DNA of 64,000 nucleotides from an uncultured delta proteobacterium (GTDB taxonomy: Bacteria; Desulfobacterota; Syntrophorhabdia; Syntrophorhabdales; WCHB1-27), in NCBI GenBank assembly GCA_963810935.1, contig CAWEPK010000015.1:16827-80826 (forward strand), read 5' to 3'. Below the pieces are notes generated by a model, which searched no databases, was not told the DNA's origin, and was given only the letters and a program-made list of their open reading frames with translations. The position numbers and the translations under genes are program-made. Numbering within the stretch: the first letter of the stretch is position 1; each line of letters begins with the position of its first letter. Of the stretch, positions 16,721 through 63,357 are shown piece by piece.

Positions 16721-16828
16721 TCAGATTTTTTCACATACTTTCATGAACAGATAAACCAGAGCCATCCCGACAATTCCCAGTACGAACATCGCGGGTACCC
16801 AAAATCCAAGGTTTGTCTCGAGCTCCAT
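16721..16828 (-). CDS. small membrane peptide upstream of kdpF (35 aa)
   Basis: Own translation MELETNLGFWVPAMFVLGIVGMALVYLFMKVCEKI; GAGGAGG RBS; one TM helix. Confidence 0.72.
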   Translation of the reverse strand: MELETNLGFWVPAMFVLGIVGMALVYLFMKVCEKI

Positions 16829-54320: not shown

Positions 54321-55172
54321 TCAATCGACAGGCCGGATGGACGCCCCGATGTCTGCCGGCTTTCCGAAATAGACAGAGGACAGGACAATGATATCTACGC
54401 CCGTCGATGCATAGCCGGCTACGTTGGTCTCATTGATGCCCCCCGCAGCCGATAGCTTCACCGAAGGGTTGATAGCCCTGACTTTCTTCACCAGGGCGGC
54501 CAGGTTATCGGGCCCCATTTTGTCGATCTGGATGATATCGGCGCCGCTTTGGGCTATTTGTTCGGCATCGCCGAGGTTGTCCGCCTCCACTATGATCTTC
54601 GTCTCTTTGGCCCTTGACCGCAGGTCGGGGATCGTCTTCAAGAATTCGCCGAGGCCGCCCATAAAACCCGTATGTTGCTTGAAGACGAGGACCGTCTCCG
54701 AAAGGCCCAGCCGGTGCGGCAGTGCGCCGCCTGCGATGACGGCCTTGATGACAATCCTCTTTGTGCCCGGAAACGACTTGCGCGTCGTGACCACCGTTAT
54801 ATCGGGATTGGCCGCTCTTGCGGCTTTTACGATGGCTGCCGTCCGGCTGGCGACGCCCGAGGCGTACTCAAGGAGGTTGAGAGCGATTTTCCAGCCCGAA
54901 TGCAGCGCCCCGGCCGGCCCCTGGGCGGCCAGGAACACCGTGCCCGCCGGAAGAAGCGTCCCGCTGGGCGCCATCATGGTAGTTGCGGCGCCAAGCTTGT
55001 CCAGAAGGCGGGCGGCCTCCTCCGTACAGCAAAGGGTCGTCTCGTGACGGGTCGAATAGACTATCTCCCCCCGCCTCCCGCCTATGCCCAGAAGCTGGGT
55101 TGTAAGGTCGCCATAGGGAACATCTTCCTCTATGAAGCGGTCAAGCTCATAATCGGGTATGTAGTGAAGCAT
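54321..55172 (-). CDS. modD: ModD protein (NadC/QPRTase family)
   Basis: EEDVPYGDLTT, NLLEYASG, TTRKSFPG, HRLGLSETVLVF..H, AAGGIN, ADI. Confidence 0.88.
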   Translation of the reverse strand: MLHYIPDYELDRFIEEDVPYGDLTTQLLGIGGRRGEIVYSTRHETTLCCTEEAARLLDKLGAATTMMAPSGTLLPAGTVFLAAQGPAGALHSGWKIALNLLEYASGVASRTAAIVKAARAANPDITVVTTRKSFPGTKRIVIKAVIAGGALPHRLGLSETVLVFKQHTGFMGGLGEFLKTIPDLRSRAKETKIIVEADNLGDAEQIAQSGADIIQIDKMGPDNLAALVKKVRAINPSVKLSAAGGINETNVAGYASTGVDIIVLSSVYFGKPADIGASIRPVD

Positions 55173-55201
55173 ATGAAGACTCCTGTCGGTAATTTCTTAT
55201 T

Positions 55202-55229
55202 ATCGCTCTATACCATCATATATAACGAG
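55202..55229. promoter_or_regulatory. ModE-binding box
   Basis: ATCGCTCTATA-N6-TATATAACGAG closely fits ATCGNTATATA-N6-TATATANCGAT; lies upstream of modD-modA. Confidence 0.8.
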
Positions 55230-55494
55230 TGGTCAAGTATTTTCCAGTCGATCGGTCCTGGTGCGTCTTGCGCACGGCAATCTCTGCCGGCTCGGAAATC
55301 GGGAAAGGTTCGAGTCGTAGTGGGGTGAGATGAAGATGATACCCGGAGCATAGCCTGTAACCCAAAAGGGCGCCCGCCGCTTTCGCTGCGGCAGGGGCCG
55401 ACAGGCTCGCAGGCAGGGAAAGCATGGCCGTCTCATGTGTTGAATGGAAACGGTCCTAAAGGACGAGGCGTCGCCGCGACGGTCCAATTATCGA

Positions 55495-55713
55495 TCAGGG
55501 CTCGCTGGTAATTACCTTCTCTGCTTCCTGAAGCAGGGTTATTGCCTGTTTCACCTGGTCGGCAGTGAGAGAGACCCCGGCCGGCGTCCCTACCAGCTCG
55601 CCGTCGTCCGCAGTCTGATGGAGCCTGAAATCGACCATTTTCGTGCCTTTGACGTTCTTAATGGTCACGAGCAATTTCTGCCTGTTTCTGTCGTTGATCT
55701 TTCCTATGAGCAT
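55495..55713 (-). CDS. PC4/YdbC-like ssDNA-binding protein, copy 1 (72 aa)
   Basis: L.VTIK.VKG..MVDFR...DDGEL..TPAGVSL pattern of the PC4 fold; AAGGAG RBS. Confidence 0.75.
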   Translation of the reverse strand: MLIGKINDRNRQKLLVTIKNVKGTKMVDFRLHQTADDGELVGTPAGVSLTADQVKQAITLLQEAEKVITSEP

Positions 55714-55868
55714 ATGGCTCCTTTTGAGTGCAAAATGTGACGTCCGGAAGTGGATATCGGTATCGCCCACTCAACCTCGACGTCCCGGCAAGCCGCGGTG
55801 CCGTTCAGCTACAGTAAAAGCCTCCCGGTGCGGACGAAAGGAGGCGAATTGTTCCGTTCTGGGGACGG

Positions 55869-55938
55869 CGAAACGCTACAAAAAGCCCAAGGATTTAGCT
55901 TCTCCCTGCGGCATTCAATACGGCAGAAGCACGAACTT
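55869..55938 (-). ncRNA. conserved 70-nt leader element with terminator-like hairpin, copy B
   Basis: Starts 7 nt after TTGACA-N18-CATAAT; homologous to 60131-60200. Confidence 0.6.
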
Positions 55939-55971
55939 ATTATCTATTATGCTCAGAATGCATACGCGGTG

Positions 55972-57168
55972 TCAACCGACCTGTACGGACGGGTGTTCTC
56001 CCGGCACATGCGCTTTCCGGCTCTTATCGTCGTCGGTCCCGAAATCACGGGCAGCCTCGCGCCGCTCGGCAACGACCCCCTTCAGCTCATCCATCAGCTC
56101 CTTGACCGAAAGCACCTCATCTATCCTGTAGCCGGTCGCGCCTACAGTGTAGAGAGGTTCTTCTTCCTGCGGGTTGTAGCCCGCCGAGCTGAGAAGACCG
56201 TTGCATATGCAGAAACACTCTCCGTTGTCACTGTTGGCCTTGCAAGTGTAAGAATTTCCCTGCCTGTCTTTTGGAAGCAGGTAGCCCTTGTCGCAATGGG
56301 GCTGCCTCCCCCCGTTCTTTGCGGCCCTGAACATCGGAGCACCGCGTAACACCCTGAAAGGCATACCGCACGGGGACCCCGGCTTTCGCGAAACGATCAC
56401 GTCTTCCATCCCCGCATCGACTACGGCCTGTTTGTACAACGCAGACGCGCTGCTTTCCTTCGTTACGAGAAAACGGGTTCCCATCTGGACGCCGTCAGCC
56501 CCGAGACGCAGGAAATGGACGATATCGCCGTGGGAATAAATCCCCCCGGCTACTATGACCGGGAAGTCCCCATACTTCATGGCGACTTCCTTGACGGACG
56601 GAAACAGGTTCTCCAGCTTGTTCGATTCGAGAGATAATTCATCGAACTTAAAACCCAGGTGCCCTCCTGCCAAAGGTCCCTCCAGGACCACTGCGTCGGG
56701 CCTGTAGCTATACCTTTCCCATTTTTTGCAAATAAGCGTAAGGGCGCGGGCCGAAGAGACAATCGGAACGAGCGCTGTGTCTCCCGGCGTTTTGATTCCG
56801 GGGAGGCCCAATGGAAGGCCGCCGCCCGATATGATCACATCGGCTTTTGCATCTATCGCCGCCCTCACCGAGTCCTCATAGTCCCCGGCAATAGCCACCA
56901 TTATATTGATGCCTATGGCTCCGCCGTTCTCTTTGGCGCTCGATATTTCTTCACGCACCGCCTCATAAGTGCCGACCGTCTTTTTCAGCCGGCGGGACAC
57001 TAATCTATCCAGGGCGGCGCTCGACACTATGCCGAGCCCCCCTTCCCGTGCGACAGCGGCGGCAAGGGGAGAAAGCGAGACCCCTATACCCATCCCGCCC
57101 TGTACTATCGGCGCCGGGATATGTTTCTTCTTAATCGTCAATGGCGGTAAAACTGTATGTTTGAGCAA
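55972..57168 (-). CDS. nitronate monooxygenase/FabK/FabX-family flavoprotein
   Basis: PIVQGGMGIGVS, PIVSSARA, EGPLAGGHLG, VAGGI, GVQMGTRF, Cys-rich C-terminus CDKG..C..CFCICNGL. Confidence 0.85.
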   Translation of the reverse strand: MLKHTVLPPLTIKKKHIPAPIVQGGMGIGVSLSPLAAAVAREGGLGIVSSAALDRLVSRRLKKTVGTYEAVREEISSAKENGGAIGINIMVAIAGDYEDSVRAAIDAKADVIISGGGLPLGLPGIKTPGDTALVPIVSSARALTLICKKWERYSYRPDAVVLEGPLAGGHLGFKFDELSLESNKLENLFPSVKEVAMKYGDFPVIVAGGIYSHGDIVHFLRLGADGVQMGTRFLVTKESSASALYKQAVVDAGMEDVIVSRKPGSPCGMPFRVLRGAPMFRAAKNGGRQPHCDKGYLLPKDRQGNSYTCKANSDNGECFCICNGLLSSAGYNPQEEEPLYTVGATGYRIDEVLSVKELMDELKGVVAERREAARDFGTDDDKSRKAHVPGEHPSVQVG

Positions 57169-57432
57169 CTATAACTCCGAAAAGGACAGCCAACATAGTT
57201 TGGAGAGGGAAATCCTCCAGTGAAAAGAAAGGAAACTCCTACCTTAACGTCTTAGCATCGCATTTTACTTGCATAGTTTCAAGTTAAAACTGAAAGAAAG
57301 ACGCCGGATGGACCCCGGGGCCGGGTAAAACAGGGTCAAAAGAGGACTTCGCGGGATTCTTTTGTTGATTTCGGGGTAGGCAACGTGAGATAATCGTTTT
57401 TCTGCTTATATTCCAATAAAGGAGATTGGTAC

Positions 57433-57636
57433 ATGCCAAAAGGAACAGTAAAATGGTTTAACGATTCAAAAGGTTTTGGTTTCATTACCCCGGATGACGG
57501 CTCTGATGTTTTTGTTCATCACTCCGCTATCCAGGGCGAGGGCTTCAAGTCCTTGTCTGAAGGCGACAAGGTCGAGTTCGAGGTAGTCAAGGGGCAGAAA
57601 GGGCCAGCCGCGGCAAACGTGCGTAAGATTAAGTAG
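57433..57636 (+). CDS. csp: cold-shock protein (Csp) 1
   Basis: [31 protein letters not shown]. Confidence 0.97.
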
Positions 57637-57650
57637 ACCGTAGTCGATTT

Positions 57651-57827
57651 ATGAGTCAGCCAAAGGACGATTCTGCGAACGGCAGTATGGGGAAAGAGCA
57701 GCTTCTTCAAATCCTTACAAAACTCCTCGGCTGCGACTTTGATTTCGGGTTCCTGCGCCAGATAGACGAGAAGTACCTCGAACAGCTTGTGGCTGCCGTG
57801 AGGGTCAGGCTCGAAAAGGAGCGGTGA
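57651..57827 (+). CDS. csp-associated 58-aa protein, copy 1 (not in ORF track)
   Basis: Own translation MSQPKDDSANGSMGKEQLLQILTKLLGCDFDFGFLRQIDEKYLEQLVAAVRVRLEKER; paralog at 60632-60808. Confidence 0.75.
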   Translation: MSQPKDDSANGSMGKEQLLQILTKLLGCDFDFGFLRQIDEKYLEQLVAAVRVRLEKER

Positions 57828-57906
57828 GGATCGAGATGACGACGAGGCGGTCAAAGACTTCTCGGCGTACGGAAGGGCTTCAACAATTTCAATCTAAGGA
57901 GAAGAC

Positions 57907-58221
57907 ATGAAAATTTACGTGGGGAATCTGGCGTACTCGGTGACGGAGGAAGATTTGAAGAAGGCTTTCGAGGCCTTCGGACAGGTTGACTCGGTAAGCG
58001 TGATCAAGGATCAGTACAGCAACCAGTCAAAGGGTTTCGGCTTCGTGGAAATGGGCGATTCCTCCCAGGCCAAGGCTGCAATAGAGGGCCTCAACGGCAA
58101 GGACCTCAATGGCCGCAGCCTGAACGTGAACGAAGCCAGGCCGCGCGCAGACAAGAACCGTGGCGGCGGATTCGGCGGAAACCGTGGCGGCGGAGGCGGC
58201 GGCAGAGGCGGCTGGCGCTAA
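57907..58221 (+). CDS. RRM RNA-binding protein with a Gly-rich tail
   Basis: RNP2 IYVGNL, RNP1 KGFGFVEM, VNEARPR, RGG tail. Confidence 0.95.
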   Translation: MKIYVGNLAYSVTEEDLKKAFEAFGQVDSVSVIKDQYSNQSKGFGFVEMGDSSQAKAAIEGLNGKDLNGRSLNVNEARPRADKNRGGGFGGNRGGGGGGRGGWR

Positions 58222-58334
58222 CCGCTTCGAGCGGCCAGTGAAGAAGCCAGACACTTCCGTGAAGAGATAGAAGCACCCGAACACCATGTCACAGAGTTAA
58301 CGGCCCCAACGGTTTTACGTAAGGGCCGGCCTGT

Positions 58335-59636
58335 TTACGGGTTTTGATGTCTGCTCCCCGGATGAGACGGTGCAACTTCGGGTCCGCGGGACTTTTGTCG
58401 GGAGGACGGGACATGCCGTGCTCCCGGACGAGCCCCTCCACGGGCCCGGGCGCCGGTCCCTGACGCGCCTGCGCGCGGCAAGCGTGCAAATTCGGTATCC
58501 TGGGCCGGCCGGGACTTCGTGTAATTGAAGTCTTTCAGCGTCCTCCGTTCGATCTTCGCACCGAGCACCTGCTCGATCTTCCTGATCAATTGCTCGTCCT
58601 CGCCGGTGATAAACGTGAAAGCATCGCCTTTCCTCTCGGCGCGGCCCGTGCGGCCGATGCGGTGGGTGTATGCGTCCGTCGTATCGGGCATGTCGTAATT
58701 TATGACGTGGGACACGCGCAATACGTCGATGCCCCTGGCAGCGATGTCTGTGGCCACCATGACCTGATACGAGCCGTCGCGGAAGCCGTCGAGGGCGGCC
58801 TGCCGCTTGTTCTGCGACAAATTCCCCTGGAGCGAGGCGGCCCTGTATCCCGCCTTCTGCAGCCGCTCGCCGACGCGCTTGGCCCGGTGTTTAGTGCGTG
58901 TGAAGATGAGGATGGACCCGGCGTCGGTCTGTTTCAGAAGCTCAACGAGCAGCTCTGTCTTCAGGTGCTCCTTTACCGGGTAAAGCGCGTGGGACACGGT
59001 GCCGAGCGGAGCGGTGTAGCCGACTTCCACCCTGACCGGTTCACACAGTACTTCCCTTGTCAGGTTGCGGATATCGTCGGGCATGGTCGCGGAAAACATC
59101 AGTGTCTGCCGTTTTGGCGGCAACTGCTTGATGATCCGCCGGACATCGGGCAAAAAACCCATGTCGAACATCCGGTCTGCCTCGTCGATGACCAGGATTT
59201 CCACGTTTGCCAGGTTGATCGTCTTCTGGGTGAGATGATCGAGCAGGCGGCCGGGGCAGGCAACGACGATGTCCACGCCGGCCCGGAGCTTCTGTATCTG
59301 AGGGGTTACCGACACGCCGCCGTAAACTACGCAGCTCGTGAGCCGCGTATGGGCAGCGAGCTTATTGACCTCCACGTGGATCTGCTCGGCCAGCTCGCGC
59401 GTCGGAGCGATGATGAGGGAGCGGACCTTGCCGCGCGGACCGGGAAGGAGGCGCTGCAGGACCGGGAGCACAAATGCGGCGGTCTTGCCTGTGCCTGTCT
59501 GAGCAAGGCCCATGACGTCCCTGCCTTCGAGCGCCTTCGGGATCGCTTGCATCTGGATAGGGGTTGCGGTCTGATAGCCAAGCGCCTTGACGTTGTCGGC
59601 TATTTTTGGGTGAAGCTTGATTGAATCGAAACTCAT
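58335..59636 (-). CDS. rhlE: DEAD-box RNA helicase (RhlE-like)
   Basis: AQTGTGKT, APTRELA, DEADRMFDMGF, FSAT, ATDIAARGID, HRIGRTGRA. Confidence 0.93.
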   Translation of the reverse strand: MSFDSIKLHPKIADNVKALGYQTATPIQMQAIPKALEGRDVMGLAQTGTGKTAAFVLPVLQRLLPGPRGKVRSLIIAPTRELAEQIHVEVNKLAAHTRLTSCVVYGGVSVTPQIQKLRAGVDIVVACPGRLLDHLTQKTINLANVEILVIDEADRMFDMGFLPDVRRIIKQLPPKRQTLMFSATMPDDIRNLTREVLCEPVRVEVGYTAPLGTVSHALYPVKEHLKTELLVELLKQTDAGSILIFTRTKHRAKRVGERLQKAGYRAASLQGNLSQNKRQAALDGFRDGSYQVMVATDIAARGIDVLRVSHVINYDMPDTTDAYTHRIGRTGRAERKGDAFTFITGEDEQLIRKIEQVLGAKIERRTLKDFNYTKSRPAQDTEFARLPRAGASGTGARARGGARPGARHVPSSRQKSRGPEVAPSHPGSRHQNP

Positions 59637-59848
59637 GACACCTCTTTATGATATGGGCAGCCAAAGACGCGCCGCAAACGGATGACTTCATGCGCTGTCC
59701 GTGCTTCTCCGGTTACCTTAGTGCTGTAGGAGCCGGCCCACGTTTCTTCTTCGCGGGCTTCTTCCTTCAGTAATCTCTGTGCTGTTTGCAATAACCGAAA
59801 ACTTAAGACCTGTGCGGCGTGAAGGGGACACAGGAGGCGGGTTAGAGC

Positions 59849-59882
59849 AAAGGGGCCCCCGGGTTGGGGGCCCTTTTTTTTC
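59849..59882. terminator. GC hairpin between csp2 and rhlE
   Basis: AAAGGGGCCCCC-GGGTT-GGGGGCCCTTTTTTT. Confidence 0.65.
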
Positions 59883-59895
59883 TTCTGTAAGATGC

Positions 59896-60096
59896 TCAGG
59901 CTGTTACGACGTTTATAGCCCTGAGGCCCTTCGGCGTCTTCTCGACGTCGAAGGTGACTGCCTGACCCTCGGACAGGGATTTGAAGCCGCTGCCGGTGAT
60001 CGAGGTGTGGTGGACAAAAATGTCTTCGCCGTCTTCACGGGCGATAAAGCCAAAACCCTTTGACTCGTTGAACCATTTTACTGTTCCATTTGCCAT
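59896..60096 (-). CDS. csp: cold-shock protein (Csp) 2
   Basis: [31 protein letters not shown]. Confidence 0.97.
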
Positions 60097-60130
60097 GATG
60101 GAGTACCTCCTTTCTTAGAATGAAAGGTTA

Positions 60131-60200
60131 CGAAACGCAATAAAAAAAGCCGCAAAGCTCAAGAGTCTTCGCGGCCTTCAATACGCAAAAACGTAAACTT
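60131..60200 (-). ncRNA. conserved 70-nt leader element with intrinsic terminator, copy A (csp2 5' UTR)
   Basis: Follows TTGACT-N17-CATAAT; stem GCCGCGAAG/CTTTGCGGC plus T7. Confidence 0.65.
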
Positions 60201-60336
60201 ATACGGCATTATGTCACAGGGGCAGGACAAAGTCAAGTGAAAAAGCGCAAAAAACCGGCGAAACCCGCAGCAAATGGTTCATCAACGGGCAATTCCTTCG
60301 TCTTCACTGATATGCTCTGTCGCGGACCAGGACAGC

Positions 60337-60609
60337 TTACGAGACTGGGTGTTTCTTGGCGACCCGTTTATGAACCCCCAACACCCCTACTTTCAACCCG
60401 AGCTTGCCGAGCAGCCTGGTCAGCCGACCGACCGCGATTTCCTGGACATCGTTATCCGCCATTTCCGTGAGCCTTGTCAGCAGTCCGGTCGCTTCGTCAA
60501 GCTTGGTTTTGGACTGGGGCATTACCCTGCCTTCAACAAGCGTATCGATCTCCACTGCAAGGGACTCGATTTCCTGCCTTACCTTTACGAACTCCGCCAC
60601 GTTACTCAT
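60337..60609 (-). CDS. hypothetical helical protein (90 aa)
   Basis: AAAGGA RBS; amphipathic helices; last gene of the minus-strand csp3 run. Confidence 0.65.
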   Translation of the reverse strand: MSNVAEFVKVRQEIESLAVEIDTLVEGRVMPQSKTKLDEATGLLTRLTEMADNDVQEIAVGRLTRLLGKLGLKVGVLGVHKRVAKKHPVS

Positions 60610-60631
60610 GTTTCATCCTTTGCTCTCGTCG

Positions 60632-60808
60632 TCAGGCCGTCTTCTCCAGCCTCATCCGCACGGCGACGATAAGTTGTTCGAGACATCTCTCGTCCAGTTG
60701 GGCCAGAAAGTCCAAGTCGGCGCTCGAATCGAGCAGCTTCGTGAGGATGCCGACGAGTTTCTGCCTTGCGGGAATCCCGCTCTGCAACACGACGTCTTGC
60801 TCTGTCAC
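60632..60808 (-). CDS. csp-associated 58-aa protein, copy 2 (not in ORF track)
   Basis: Own translation (GTG start) MTEQDVVLQSGIPARQKLVGILTKLLDSSADLDFLAQLDERCLEQLIVAVRMRLEKTA. Confidence 0.75.
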   Translation of the reverse strand: MTEQDVVLQSGIPARQKLVGILTKLLDSSADLDFLAQLDERCLEQLIVAVRMRLEKTA

Positions 60809-60818
60809 TTTCTTGAGC

Positions 60819-61022
60819 CTATCCCTTCTTCCGCACGTTTCCTGCAGCCGGTCCTTTTTGTCCCTTCACGATCTCGAACTCAACCTTGTCGCCCTCCGAC
60901 AACGACTTGAAGCCCGAACCCTGAATGGAGCTGTGATGGACAAAAACATCCGCGCCGCCGTCCTCAGTGATAAACCCGAACCCTTTTGCATCGTTGAACC
61001 ACTTCACTACCCCTTCCGCCAT
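60819..61022 (-). CDS. csp: cold-shock protein (Csp) 3
   Basis: [37 protein letters not shown]. Confidence 0.97.
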
Positions 61023-61103
61023 ATGCCTGACTCCTTTCGTTTTATTGGAATGCGGCGTCAATCCTCAACCGCATTCGGGGCCGGTTCTATCCTGGCCCCG
61101 ATC

Positions 61104-61322
61104 TCACTTGTTCTCGGCAAACCTTGTTTTTGCTTCTTTGAGCAATTCAATAGCCTGATCTATTTGACCCTCGGATAGCGAGATACCGGCGGGCGTAGCC
61201 ACCATTTCCCCACCGTCGACAGTATGATGGACACGGACATCGATCATTCTCGTCTTCTTCACGTCCTTTATAGTCACCAGTATCTTTTCTCTCGCCCTTA
61301 CGTCGATTTTTCCGATAAACAT
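61104..61322 (-). CDS. PC4/YdbC-like ssDNA-binding protein, copy 2 (72 aa)
   Basis: MFIGKIDVRAREKILVTIKDVKKTRMIDVRVH..GEMVATPAGISL; same length as and clearly paralogous to 55495-55713. Confidence 0.75.
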   Translation of the reverse strand: MFIGKIDVRAREKILVTIKDVKKTRMIDVRVHHTVDGGEMVATPAGISLSEGQIDQAIELLKEAKTRFAENK

Positions 61323-61365
61323 GAATCCTCCTCCTGCCTGGGACAAAGCATGGCTCGTAAGCTGC

Positions 61366-61671
61366 TTATTCTTTCTCCCCTTTCCCGCGCACCAGGGTTG
61401 GTTGGCCCTTCCGCACGACATATTGCGTATTTTTCAGTAATGACTTATAGAAATCGATCGAGCTTGTCTCTACCACTTTTGTCTCGTAAAGTTCATATAA
61501 CCCTTCTTTCATCGCATCGAGCCGGATGGCGCAGTGAATAACGACAAACGTCCCCCTCGCCCCGACGTCGATCCTCGCAAGGTCGGCTTCTCTCACGTTG
61601 CAAATGTATGCGCCGTCGTCGGTAGCCAATTGTACGGGCACCATTTTAGCCTGGGAAGTGCGCTCGATCAT
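61366..61671 (-). CDS. hypothetical protein (101 aa)
   Basis: AGGAG RBS; first gene of the run that continues PC4-csp3. Confidence 0.6.
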   Translation of the reverse strand: MIERTSQAKMVPVQLATDDGAYICNVREADLARIDVGARGTFVVIHCAIRLDAMKEGLYELYETKVVETSSIDFYKSLLKNTQYVVRKGQPTLVRGKGEKE

Positions 61672-62052
61672 GAGGTCTCCTAAAAGGGGTCACACAGGAC
61701 CCCGCCTGAAACGATCTGCCGGCGCCGAAAAACCACGCATTAGGGGGCACGAAGACACCCATCTGAAAGAAAAAATGCAGTGAAACAGCCGAGGATAGGA
61801 ACGGGTCGTACCCTGCGACCCTTCGTTTCGAAATGATGCCCGGCATACCTATGAATGGCCCGATCGAAGACCTGGGCGATTCAGGTGAGTACCGTTTCCC
61901 ACCGGAGTGGACTTATCGCCGATTGTCGATGATATAGTTTACCACCACCGCGAGCAATAAGCAAGCTGTTAGTACGCAGGACCGCTCCCCGGAAACCAGT
62001 CCGACCTTCTTCGACAACGGAAAATCAGGGTCTATTCGGGGCGATGACCTTC

Positions 62053-63357
62053 TCACTCACTCAGTTTAACGTCGACCGGCGAATCGTACCGGCTTGTCAT
62101 GGCGAGGAAGACGGAGACAAACCATATCCCCAGCACTGCGATGAGCTTGCCCCTCACCCCTCCCTCGACCGAAAGGGTTATCGAGCATGCCAGTATGAAA
62201 ATGGCCGTCCAGATAGAGTGCGCTTGCCGTCTAACCGCCATATTGAGGAGCGCCAGCAGGCCCGCTAGGAGATATACGAGGTGATGGGCCCAGGCGACGG
62301 GGCTCATGAGGACAATCAGAGGCAGGAATATGAGGATAGCCCAGTCGAGAGAACCGGCCGGCGAACGCATGAACCTTTTCCGCGCTGCATAAAGGCTTGC
62401 GATAAATACCGCGCCGGAAGATGCAAGTCCGGCAGTTAAGGCGAGGACAGGGCTGTTGAAAAGCGGGTGGGGGTTCAGCTCGCTCTTCAGGAATAAGTAT
62501 GAGGCAAATCCATTGAGACTGATGTTATGGATAGCTCCCGGCGGGAAACTGCCCGCATGACTCAGCGACGGCAGAACATCCGTGACCCACTGCCGCCAGG
62601 TCTCATAGGGCAAAAGAAGGAGCGAAACACCCGATAAGCCGGCAAGCAGGGCGACTGAATAAGCGACTATCCGATACTTCCTGCAGACTATCAATGGAAA
62701 CAGGAGGATGAAGGGACTGGTCTTCAGCAAAAGCGCGCAGACCAGGCAAGCGCCGGCCCAGAATGACCGATTCGATCTGGCCAGATGCCAGAACAGGAAT
62801 ATGAAACATGCCGACGCAAGGCTGACCTGGCCGCACTTCAGGGTGAAGATAATCGGTTGAAAGGTGATGATGTACGCCAGGTCAAGGAATATCAACAAGG
62901 CTCCCGTCCGCGCGGAAAGCTTGAACAGCTTCACCGGCAGAAACCAAAGGAGAAACAGAACTGCCATGTGATTGAGAACGAGTGTAGCCACGGCCGCCGA
63001 CTTGTAAGAAATAAGAGAGAGGGGATACGCCAGAAGGAGTGACGGTGGAGGGTACAGGTACTGAAAGATGTACTGCGAAGGCATGATGGCCTGGATAACA
63101 TCTCTCTTGTACGGCGATAGAGAGAACTGGAAAACGGCCCTCGCCGCGCACCAGAAAGACGGCAGATCGATATACTCGATGCCGGCGAGCCTGCTATATC
63201 CGTAATTGTATACGAACGGTAAATAGAGGATGGCCAGAAATGCGGCCAAAAGAACGCGGACGTCCACAAGCTCCTGACCCGGTTGCCCGGCGCCGGAAAG
63301 CTTATCTTCGTTTACCTGCCGTTCGCACCTGAACGACGATAGGTCCAACCAGGACAT
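62053..63357 (-). CDS. GT87/DUF2029-family membrane glycosyltransferase
   Basis: D...FW.AA....SPY, YLYPP, GQVS, LLK..P, N.SL.G, SPVAWAHH; multi-TM. Confidence 0.82.
   Translation of the reverse strand: MSWLDLSSFRCERQVNEDKLSGAGQPGQELVDVRVLLAAFLAILYLPFVYNYGYSRLAGIEYIDLPSFWCAARAVFQFSLSPYKRDVIQAIMPSQYIFQYLYPPPSLLLAYPLSLISYKSAAVATLVLNHMAVLFLLWFLPVKLFKLSARTGALLIFLDLAYIITFQPIIFTLKCGQVSLASACFIFLFWHLARSNRSFWAGACLVCALLLKTSPFILLFPLIVCRKYRIVAYSVALLAGLSGVSLLLLPYETWRQWVTDVLPSLSHAGSFPPGAIHNISLNGFASYLFLKSELNPHPLFNSPVLALTAGLASSGAVFIASLYAARKRFMRSPAGSLDWAILIFLPLIVLMSPVAWAHHLVYLLAGLLALLNMAVRRQAHSIWTAIFILACSITLSVEGGVRGKLIAVLGIWFVSVFLAMTSRYDSPVDVKLSE

Follow-up and report, generated by a model that had tools for sequence, protein, structure and literature searches.

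Leaders of cold-shock protein (csp) genes are already known to be points of control at the levels of translation, RNA decay and Rho. In Escherichia coli, cold antiterminates the csp leaders and CspA terminates via Rho (PMC12360218; here and below, papers are cited for the passages drawn upon), and in Staphylococcus aureus CspA holds down cspA by way of a U-rich leader motif (PMC5815144) and favours the locked form of cspB and cspC (PMC8034633). In this study, a window of 64,000 nucleotides (nt) from an uncultured delta proteobacterium of the Syntrophorhabdales (GCA_963810935.1, contig CAWEPK010000015.1, forward-strand positions 16,827 to 80,826; all positions below are those of the window) was investigated, with attention to the 5' leader of a csp gene, csp2, called copy A, and to a related sequence, copy B, which stands before a gene of the PC4 family. 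Comparison and folding of sequences reveal in the copy A family a predicted terminator, an overlapping antiterminator and a tie to csp genes. Our reading, which we hold with a probability of roughly 0.55, is that these leaders are intrinsic csp attenuators gated by cold and by Csp feedback, and that copy B is a leftover.

Set beside the described systems, the leader is a variant of the known theme of csp-leader control and not a new class. Like the Rho-dependent leaders of E. coli, it has premature termination as the controlled step, with cold proposed to give read-through and Csp to give termination; unlike them, it presents an intrinsic terminator (hairpin and U-tract) with an overlapping antiterminator, no sequence likeness to them was found, and it is known here from sequence alone. 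The autoregulation of S. aureus cspA is alike in being a negative feedback that Csp exerts at a U-rich motif in its own leader, but the output there is RNase III processing and translation. The thermoswitches of S. aureus cspB and cspC (PMC8034633) are alike in having a leader of about 110 nt, two exclusive folds, U-rich motifs and repression by CspA, and they share with our leader a long imperfect 5' hairpin with the ribosome-binding site outside it, to which the leaders called type I below add a short anti-Shine-Dalgarno hairpin. However, those switches act on translation, the string 'terminat' being absent from the main text of PMC8034633, and their locked form pairs the middle of the leader with the ribosome-binding site, whereas here the alternative fold would pair +9..+17 with the terminator arm.

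The definition of an attenuator in the cited part of PMC10573289 includes a mutually exclusive antiterminator, and the leader, as judged from its sequence, has the structural features named there: a GC hairpin with a U-tract is present, an overlapping, mutually exclusive antiterminator is present with strong conservation and modest covariation, and the whole lies between a promoter, whose layout is conserved in relatives, and the regulated gene. The general idea of premature terminators before csp genes is already in print, since the supplement of Naville and Gautheret 2010 (PMC2965389) counts csp among the families with an excess of candidate attenuators (47, P 3.1e-13), under the entry 'RNA thermometer (?/47)'. 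That supplement gives terminator calls only; its sequences differ from the leader by eye, 62 of its 80 rows contain no Syntrophorhabdales or Nitrospirota entry and no antiterminator, and the main text is without csp. No csp entry was seen in the main text of a 50-genome RNA survey or in the text and supplement of a 26-genome survey. Neither Rfam 15 nor the literature searched, PMC6096418 included, showed an intrinsic terminator/antiterminator pair in a csp leader, or this motif; that literature covered few subscription papers, and a listing may exist in the supplements of a 224-motif survey and of the 50-genome survey.

The Rfam family RF01766 (cspA thermoregulator) likewise sits on csp mRNA, and a sub-threshold match to it covers csp2. 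It was rejected as a description of the leader: the score of 46 bits (cut-off 78) comes from the coding region and the 3' terminator, in an alignment that skips 138 nt of leader. One locus of the leaders called type II reaches 88.4 bits to RF01766 with its coding region, and its leader alone gives no match. Over the whole window, Rfam at the curators' thresholds gave no match, and relaxed scans gave the coding-region match to RF01766 and chance matches only, the leader alone matching nothing, an outcome that the first-pass annotation of this DNA had named as support for novelty.

A leader family tied to csp genes

The features of the csp2 leader, in the order of transcription, are as follows.

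60208..60236, minus strand: csp2 promoter of sigma-70 type (TTGACT, 17 nt, TG-extended CATAAT), with the same layout ahead of relatives' leaders
60097..60200, minus strand: leader copy A, the whole csp2 5' untranslated region (UTR), 104 nt to the ATG; model score 97.7 bits
60184..60192, minus strand: 5' strand of the antiterminator, U-rich (leader +9..+17), candidate Csp site
60165..60175, minus strand: shared switch strand X, composed of the terminator 5' arm (60175-60167) and the antiterminator 3' strand (60173-60165)
60149..60157, minus strand: 3' arm of the terminator hairpin
60142..60148, minus strand: U7 tract; predicted premature 3' end near 60142 (RNA of about 59 nt)
60128..60132, minus strand: 3' strand of basal helix P1b, pairing with 60196-60192 in the full-length long hairpin
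60122..60127, minus strand: anti-Shine-Dalgarno strand, pairing with 60114-60109 in the consensus fold of 26 type I leaders
60105..60112, minus strand: csp2 Shine-Dalgarno, recognised by sequence and conserved in leader alignments
59896..60096, minus strand: csp2, the regulated gene, a 66-amino-acid cold-shock protein (Pfam CSD PF00313, 93.9 bits)

The first-pass annotation had described a 70-nt element in two copies, A (60200-60131) and B (55938-55869), both on the minus strand and each starting 7 nt after a CATAAT box with a TTGAC-type -35 box. Both 70-mers are present exactly so. They agree in 53 of 73 aligned columns, a score reached by none of 1000 shuffles, and their promoters are the top two of 7 promoter-like sites in 54500-62200, where 3.5 are expected from shuffles. 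The transcription start of leader A was placed from the -10 box. The two-copy 70-mer, however, gives way to a larger unit: the element is the 5' UTR of csp genes, about 105-125 nt long, which occurs five times in the genome and reaches the csp ATG (104 nt in copy A). Four copies stand before csp genes (csp2, C3, C8 and C5) and the fifth is copy B, while four other stand-alone csp genes of the genome, including two others in the window, are without a leader.

A covariance model, R1, was built from 47 leaders, copy B among them. It matches all 22 family genomes, with 62 of 64 matches preceding csp. In a same-phylum sample, matches were found in 9 of 61 genomes, with strong ones in 3 of the 58 outside the order, all three before csp, and the weak matches are partly other leaders. 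The leader was also observed in 28 of 81 genomes of the phylum Nitrospirota, where each of the 27 loci fetched precedes csp. From metagenomes, 120 matches were obtained, of which 112 stand before csp, 5 are cut short and 3 stand before something else (112/115 informative); the search pattern held both antiterminator strands, so that these matches were used solely to count downstream genes. Named records carrying the leader belong to Thermodesulfovibrionia and other Nitrospirota, Syntrophorhabdaceae and unclassified deltaproteobacteria. Conversely, the model gave no match in three of five genomes searched, those behind a Geobacteraceae, a Desulfobacterales and an Omnitrophota locus, and no viral contig matched the leader pattern. 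Helices were counted per subtype, because aligning all 68 leaders globally by sequence left hardly any consensus fold and an automatic type II consensus yielded 8 pairs only.

Two further kinds of csp leader were noticed. A csp paralog in one genus (L096, L182, L186-L188, L190) has an intermediate leader, with the outer helices of type II, a type I-like central stem and mostly no U-tract. Desulfobacterales and related csp genes have a different, visibly conserved leader of about 110 nt behind a sigma-70 promoter, at about 880-1003 (L115, L119, L126, L140, L143-L145, L151, L158, L161, L168-L170, L172, L174, L176-L178), which R1 does not match except for a 17-bit partial match in L144, and which is possibly a second undescribed csp leader family.

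Terminator, antiterminator and the proposed switch

Hairpins had been claimed for both copies, and that of copy A is borne out: it folds better than chance (z -3.2 for the 70-mer, -4.1 for the whole leader), whereas copy B does not (z 0.06 and 0.71, respectively), and its hairpin reaches -14.5 kcal/mol against -8.3 in copy B. Base pairs fill 94% and 96% of the cells of the central stem in two leader sets (47 and 46 leaders), and the covariation that had been suggested as a check on the element is found in the terminator stem, exceeding all 500 shuffles in both sets. At least 6 of the 8 bases following the stem are U in 42 of 44 leaders, and among 88 leaders the tract positions 2-6 are U in 92-100%. 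Opposite a pyrimidine, U is kept in 166 of 175 cells of these 88 leaders, and opposite G, where C would also pair, U stands in 131, C in 22 and another base in 5 of 158 cells. Since U is kept where pairing is impossible and preferred to C opposite G, the tract appears to be maintained as U and not as a helix strand, and in the alignments its conservation is the pattern of a terminator. A consensus terminator scan had neither copy's hairpin among its 10 sites. The sequencing runs considered (18, four of them compared with the window) were all assembled contigs with small shares. A peat metatranscriptome of assembled contigs from relatives covers 59897-60193; it cannot show start, end or level, and neither it nor the single piece among the 32 listed that bridges the U-tract (175 nt, 28 differences) was used as evidence.

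The first-pass annotation had proposed a transcription attenuator in both places, which is unlikely for copy B, as it seems to drift neutrally (see below), and is strengthened for copy A by a conserved overlapping antiterminator that it had missed. This helix was detected by folding transcripts that end short of the 3' arm. In such RNA, the U-rich +9..+17 strand forms 8-12 base pairs with the terminator 5' arm and loop (9 in copy A, 60192-60184 with 60173-60165), and that strand is invariant in 26 of 26 type I leaders, except for one C deleted in copy A. The pairing beats shuffles of the upstream segment (p <=0.05) in 26 of 44 leaders and in none of 24 type II leaders. In the nascent RNA, 41/46 and 41/46 leaders of the two sets have 7 or more arm bases buried, compared with 4/24 of type II. 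When the leaders are aligned by sequence only, pairing in the helix amounts to 83% and 84.5%, and slid registers give 44-67%. The strongest sign of the antiterminator in the alignments is the conservation of two terminator-loop bases (73/75 and 71/75 leaders), which would be paired in the terminator in 14 and 27 leaders and in the antiterminator in 72 and 69. In addition, 6 leaders, located at two places of the Csp tree, carry one antiterminator pair turned round from A-U to U-A. The 13 type III leaders have a helix that is one pair shorter and changed in letters on both strands, and most of its positions pair in 10-12 of them.

The type II leaders, which come for the most part from other families of the order, lack these features together: a U-tract is found in 0 of 24, the central stem is weak and the antiterminator is absent (72.5% paired, a level reached by 482 of 500 shuffles). 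Their long hairpin, including the helix homologous to P1b, is supported nevertheless (88% paired, 0/500 shuffles, 25 leaders).

With reference to these features, we propose that X (60175-60165) would pair first with the U-rich +9..+17 strand in the emerging RNA, forming the antiterminator, and that the 3' arm, X', once emerged, would have to displace the U-rich strand to build the GC hairpin ahead of the U-tract. Displacement in time would stop transcription at about +59, before the ribosome-binding site, and displacement too late would allow the csp mRNA to be made and to refold into the long hairpin, with the Shine-Dalgarno just downstream. Cold would slow the strand exchange and favour read-through, while free Csp on the U-rich strand before X is made would block the antiterminator and shut its own gene; that strand stays single-stranded until X has been transcribed, so that Csp occupying it would tip the outcome towards termination. 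By analogy with the described systems, the input is most likely cold combined with negative Csp feedback, and the cell would thereby probably make cold-shock proteins only when needed. That termination occurs in vivo we consider likely, and the decision is probably kinetic.

Several points weigh against this proposal. A premature 3' end near 60142 is a prediction from comparison and folding alone, and the action of Csp at the U-rich strand is argued by analogy. Terminator arms often find an upstream partner by chance, with at least 7 arm bases buried at 93 of 262 other terminator-like sites of the genome. The covariation of the antiterminator is modest, being matched by 7 and 4 of 500 shuffles, a level which, by the tool's own warning, related neutral sequences reach in 5-25% of trials; type III rows are out of register in both antiterminator counts, and the second leader set was collected with the model of the first, making it not independent in sequence. 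In type II, the features may have disappeared together in one event, as most type II Csps group together in a tree (113 rows, 61 columns) of poor resolution. At equilibrium the terminator of copy A wins by 8.3 kcal/mol at 5 C and by 6.1 at 50 C, and because it wins at all temperatures, the temperature step rests on kinetics; the estimated strand-exchange barrier (median 15.2 kcal/mol in the cold vs 11.6) is generic, any helix showing likewise, and carries no weight. Finally, forcing the antiterminator lowers the predicted openness of the Shine-Dalgarno from 0.67 to 0.29 in 16 Nitrospirota leaders and from 0.42 to 0.25 in 15 type I leaders, which would also fit a translational role.

The thermosensor suggested earlier, if meant as a plain equilibrium switch, finds no support in copy A, where the terminator leads by 6-8 kcal/mol between 5 and 50 C. 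The balance between terminator and antiterminator spans about -14 to +8 kcal/mol in the family as a whole, and some leaders cross over on warming, such as that of the C3 paralog near 25 C; the equilibrium values of a few leaders depend on the point at which the RNA is cut. A metabolite-binding riboswitch was also rejected: the antiterminator closes a loop of variable length and sequence, and the conserved bases lie in the competing helices, leaving no conserved ligand core apart from the expression platform, and a metabolite input is disfavoured for that reason.

Among the rival explanations, a switch of translation or stability only, like that of S. aureus cspB and cspC, survives best, and we still consider it unlikely. 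Here the long hairpin would be the open form, the antiterminator with the anti-Shine-Dalgarno fold the locked one, and the U run would never terminate. Leader length and the single long imperfect 5' hairpin do resemble the open form presented in PMC8034633, the long hairpin is supported in the 25 type II leaders that have no terminator, and in folding the Shine-Dalgarno closes when the alternative helix is forced, which makes a second, translational layer of control likely. Yet a U-tract kept where it is unable to pair speaks against translation as the sole output, leaders that have lost the U-tract have lost the alternative helix as well, and free equilibrium folding predicts no opening of the Shine-Dalgarno in the cold, access in type I leaders rising with warmth from 0.31 at 5 C to 0.45 at 50 C.

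Rather less probable is a positive feedback in which Csp melts a terminator that forms by default, the upstream pairing merely assisting. The Csp-antiterminated switch of the first-pass annotation is of this kind and could exist, given that CspE-type proteins antiterminate by melting intrinsic terminator hairpins (PMC7858274, as cited); the terminator of copy A wins at equilibrium, so that something must prevent it, and the terminator loop is U-rich in most leaders. Such melting needs no dedicated conserved antiterminator, however, the cases of csp self-regulation in the cited literature are negative, and the anatomy fits Csp-promoted termination at least as well. An unregulated leaky terminator, which would set a basal csp level or yield a short U-rich RNA that soaks up Csp, is the least credible: terminator and antiterminator do lie within about 3 kcal/mol in many leaders and orphans with intact promoter and terminator but no csp recur, but orphans are rare (3/115 metagenome matches), copy B drifts neutrally, and for a fixed set-point a two-state design that two phyla have conserved would be superfluous.

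Copy B and the PC4 gene

Copy B and its surroundings comprise the following features.

55946..55975, minus strand: copy B promoter (TTGACA, 18 nt, CATAAT), directly 3' of a nitronate-monooxygenase-family (nmo) gene
55869..55938, minus strand: leader copy B, a degenerate orphan csp leader; model score 29.3 bits
55813..55841, minus strand: second terminator-like hairpin with a T-rich tail, 3' of copy B
55495..55713, minus strand: PC4-family single-strand-binding protein gene (Pfam PC4 PF02229, 30.4 bits), 225 nt from the copy B start

Copy B is by far the weakest model match of the genome, at 29 bits vs 63-98 for the others. It has a weak hairpin (55912-55885) followed by only five U in a row (55884-55880), and both the ribosome-binding site and csp are gone. 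Compared with a congener, G002, it is identical in 61 of 70 positions, as against 104 of 104 in leader A, and third codon positions between the two genomes are 86-89% identical, like copy B; because its divergence equals that of third codon positions, copy B seems to drift at the neutral rate. In G002 its promoter is retained with a spacer of 17 nt, the U-tract is broken and the terminator cannot form (change in folding free energy, ddG, +10). Another congener, G003, has nmo, the promoter, an intact leader and csp, then PC4, and shares with our genome a 28-nt stretch before PC4 (4/500 shuffles). The interval from copy B to PC4 yielded no remnant of a csp gene. The simplest account is a loss of csp with the promoter retained, and it appears quite likely that copy B is a decaying leader left with its promoter by such a loss between nmo and PC4. 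Against this account stand the fact that copy B of this genome remains able to form both helices and carries some compensating changes (ddG -3.1), and the similar orphan leaders found in three other genomes (G006, G019 and G101).

The module had been thought to be duplicated so as to control both csp2-rhlE and PC4, which is not supported for a csp leader whose second copy, now lacking the ribosome-binding site, changes at the neutral rate; its duplication before PC4 is probably incidental. That copy B is instead a working attenuator recruited to place PC4 under csp-type control seems improbable to us. It would agree with the retention of the promoter in two species, with the two helices and their compensating changes, and with the other orphan leaders, which too precede genes of the csp neighbourhood. 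Opposed to it are the neutral divergence, the broken U-tract in G002, the lowest model score despite membership in the training set, and the fact that among 30 loci a leader directly precedes the PC4 gene in this genome and G002 only.

Orphan leaders with promoter and terminator intact were also observed before non-csp sequence at L209, L315, L316 and L329. In the window, the hairpin 55841-55813 together with the copy B promoter could yield an RNA of about 125 nt, its tail being weaker in G002. A separate extended -10 promoter precedes the PC4 orthologue of one genus (L034-L038, about 1250-1400), together with a conserved, pyrimidine-rich leader that is unrelated to the csp leader.

Neighbouring genes and implications

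Downstream of csp2, two further features were mapped.

59849..59877, no strand assigned: GC hairpin 3' of csp2, with a good U-tract on the plus strand and a weak one on the csp strand
58335..59636, minus strand: DEAD-box RNA helicase, best NCBIfam model RhlE with a score under its cut-off

The weak U-tract on the csp strand makes some read-through into rhlE possible. Since the GC hairpin separates the two genes and they are adjacent in 3 of 30 loci, rhlE is at most a passenger of csp2. The region 55495-61671 is a dense cluster of nucleic-acid chaperone genes, with three csp, two PC4, one RRM protein and one DEAD-box helicase gene, which recur together in relatives in shuffled order. Two paralogous 58-amino-acid open reading frames (ORFs), 60632-60808 (minus) and 57651-57827 (plus), are 53% identical, have no Pfam match and lie directly 3' of leaderless csp genes, as well as 3' of csp in relatives. 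Conserved ORFs of 90 and 101 amino acids, at 60337-60609 and 61366-61671 (both minus), have no Pfam or NCBIfam match; their homologues adjoin csp and PC4 repeatedly in the family, and orphan leaders precede them in G019 and G006.

Taken in its widest form, the proposal would describe a factor-independent, kinetically gated transcriptional cold switch, in which a three-strand exchange within a 60-nt leader decides intrinsic termination by temperature, Csp closes a negative loop on the antiterminator strand and the same strands, after read-through, govern access of the ribosome; Syntrophorhabdales-like bacteria and Nitrospirota would have it in common, and a type II sister clade would have kept only the translational hairpin. 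We advance this form tentatively, the odds being somewhat against it as a whole. If true, it would be a Rho-free counterpart of the csp switches of E. coli, in organisms that are uncultured or little-studied anaerobes. Should the leader work as proposed, its 60 nt would offer a factor-free test of whether temperature or Csp gates intrinsic termination, with about 200 natural leader variants and a natural series with and without the terminator at hand.

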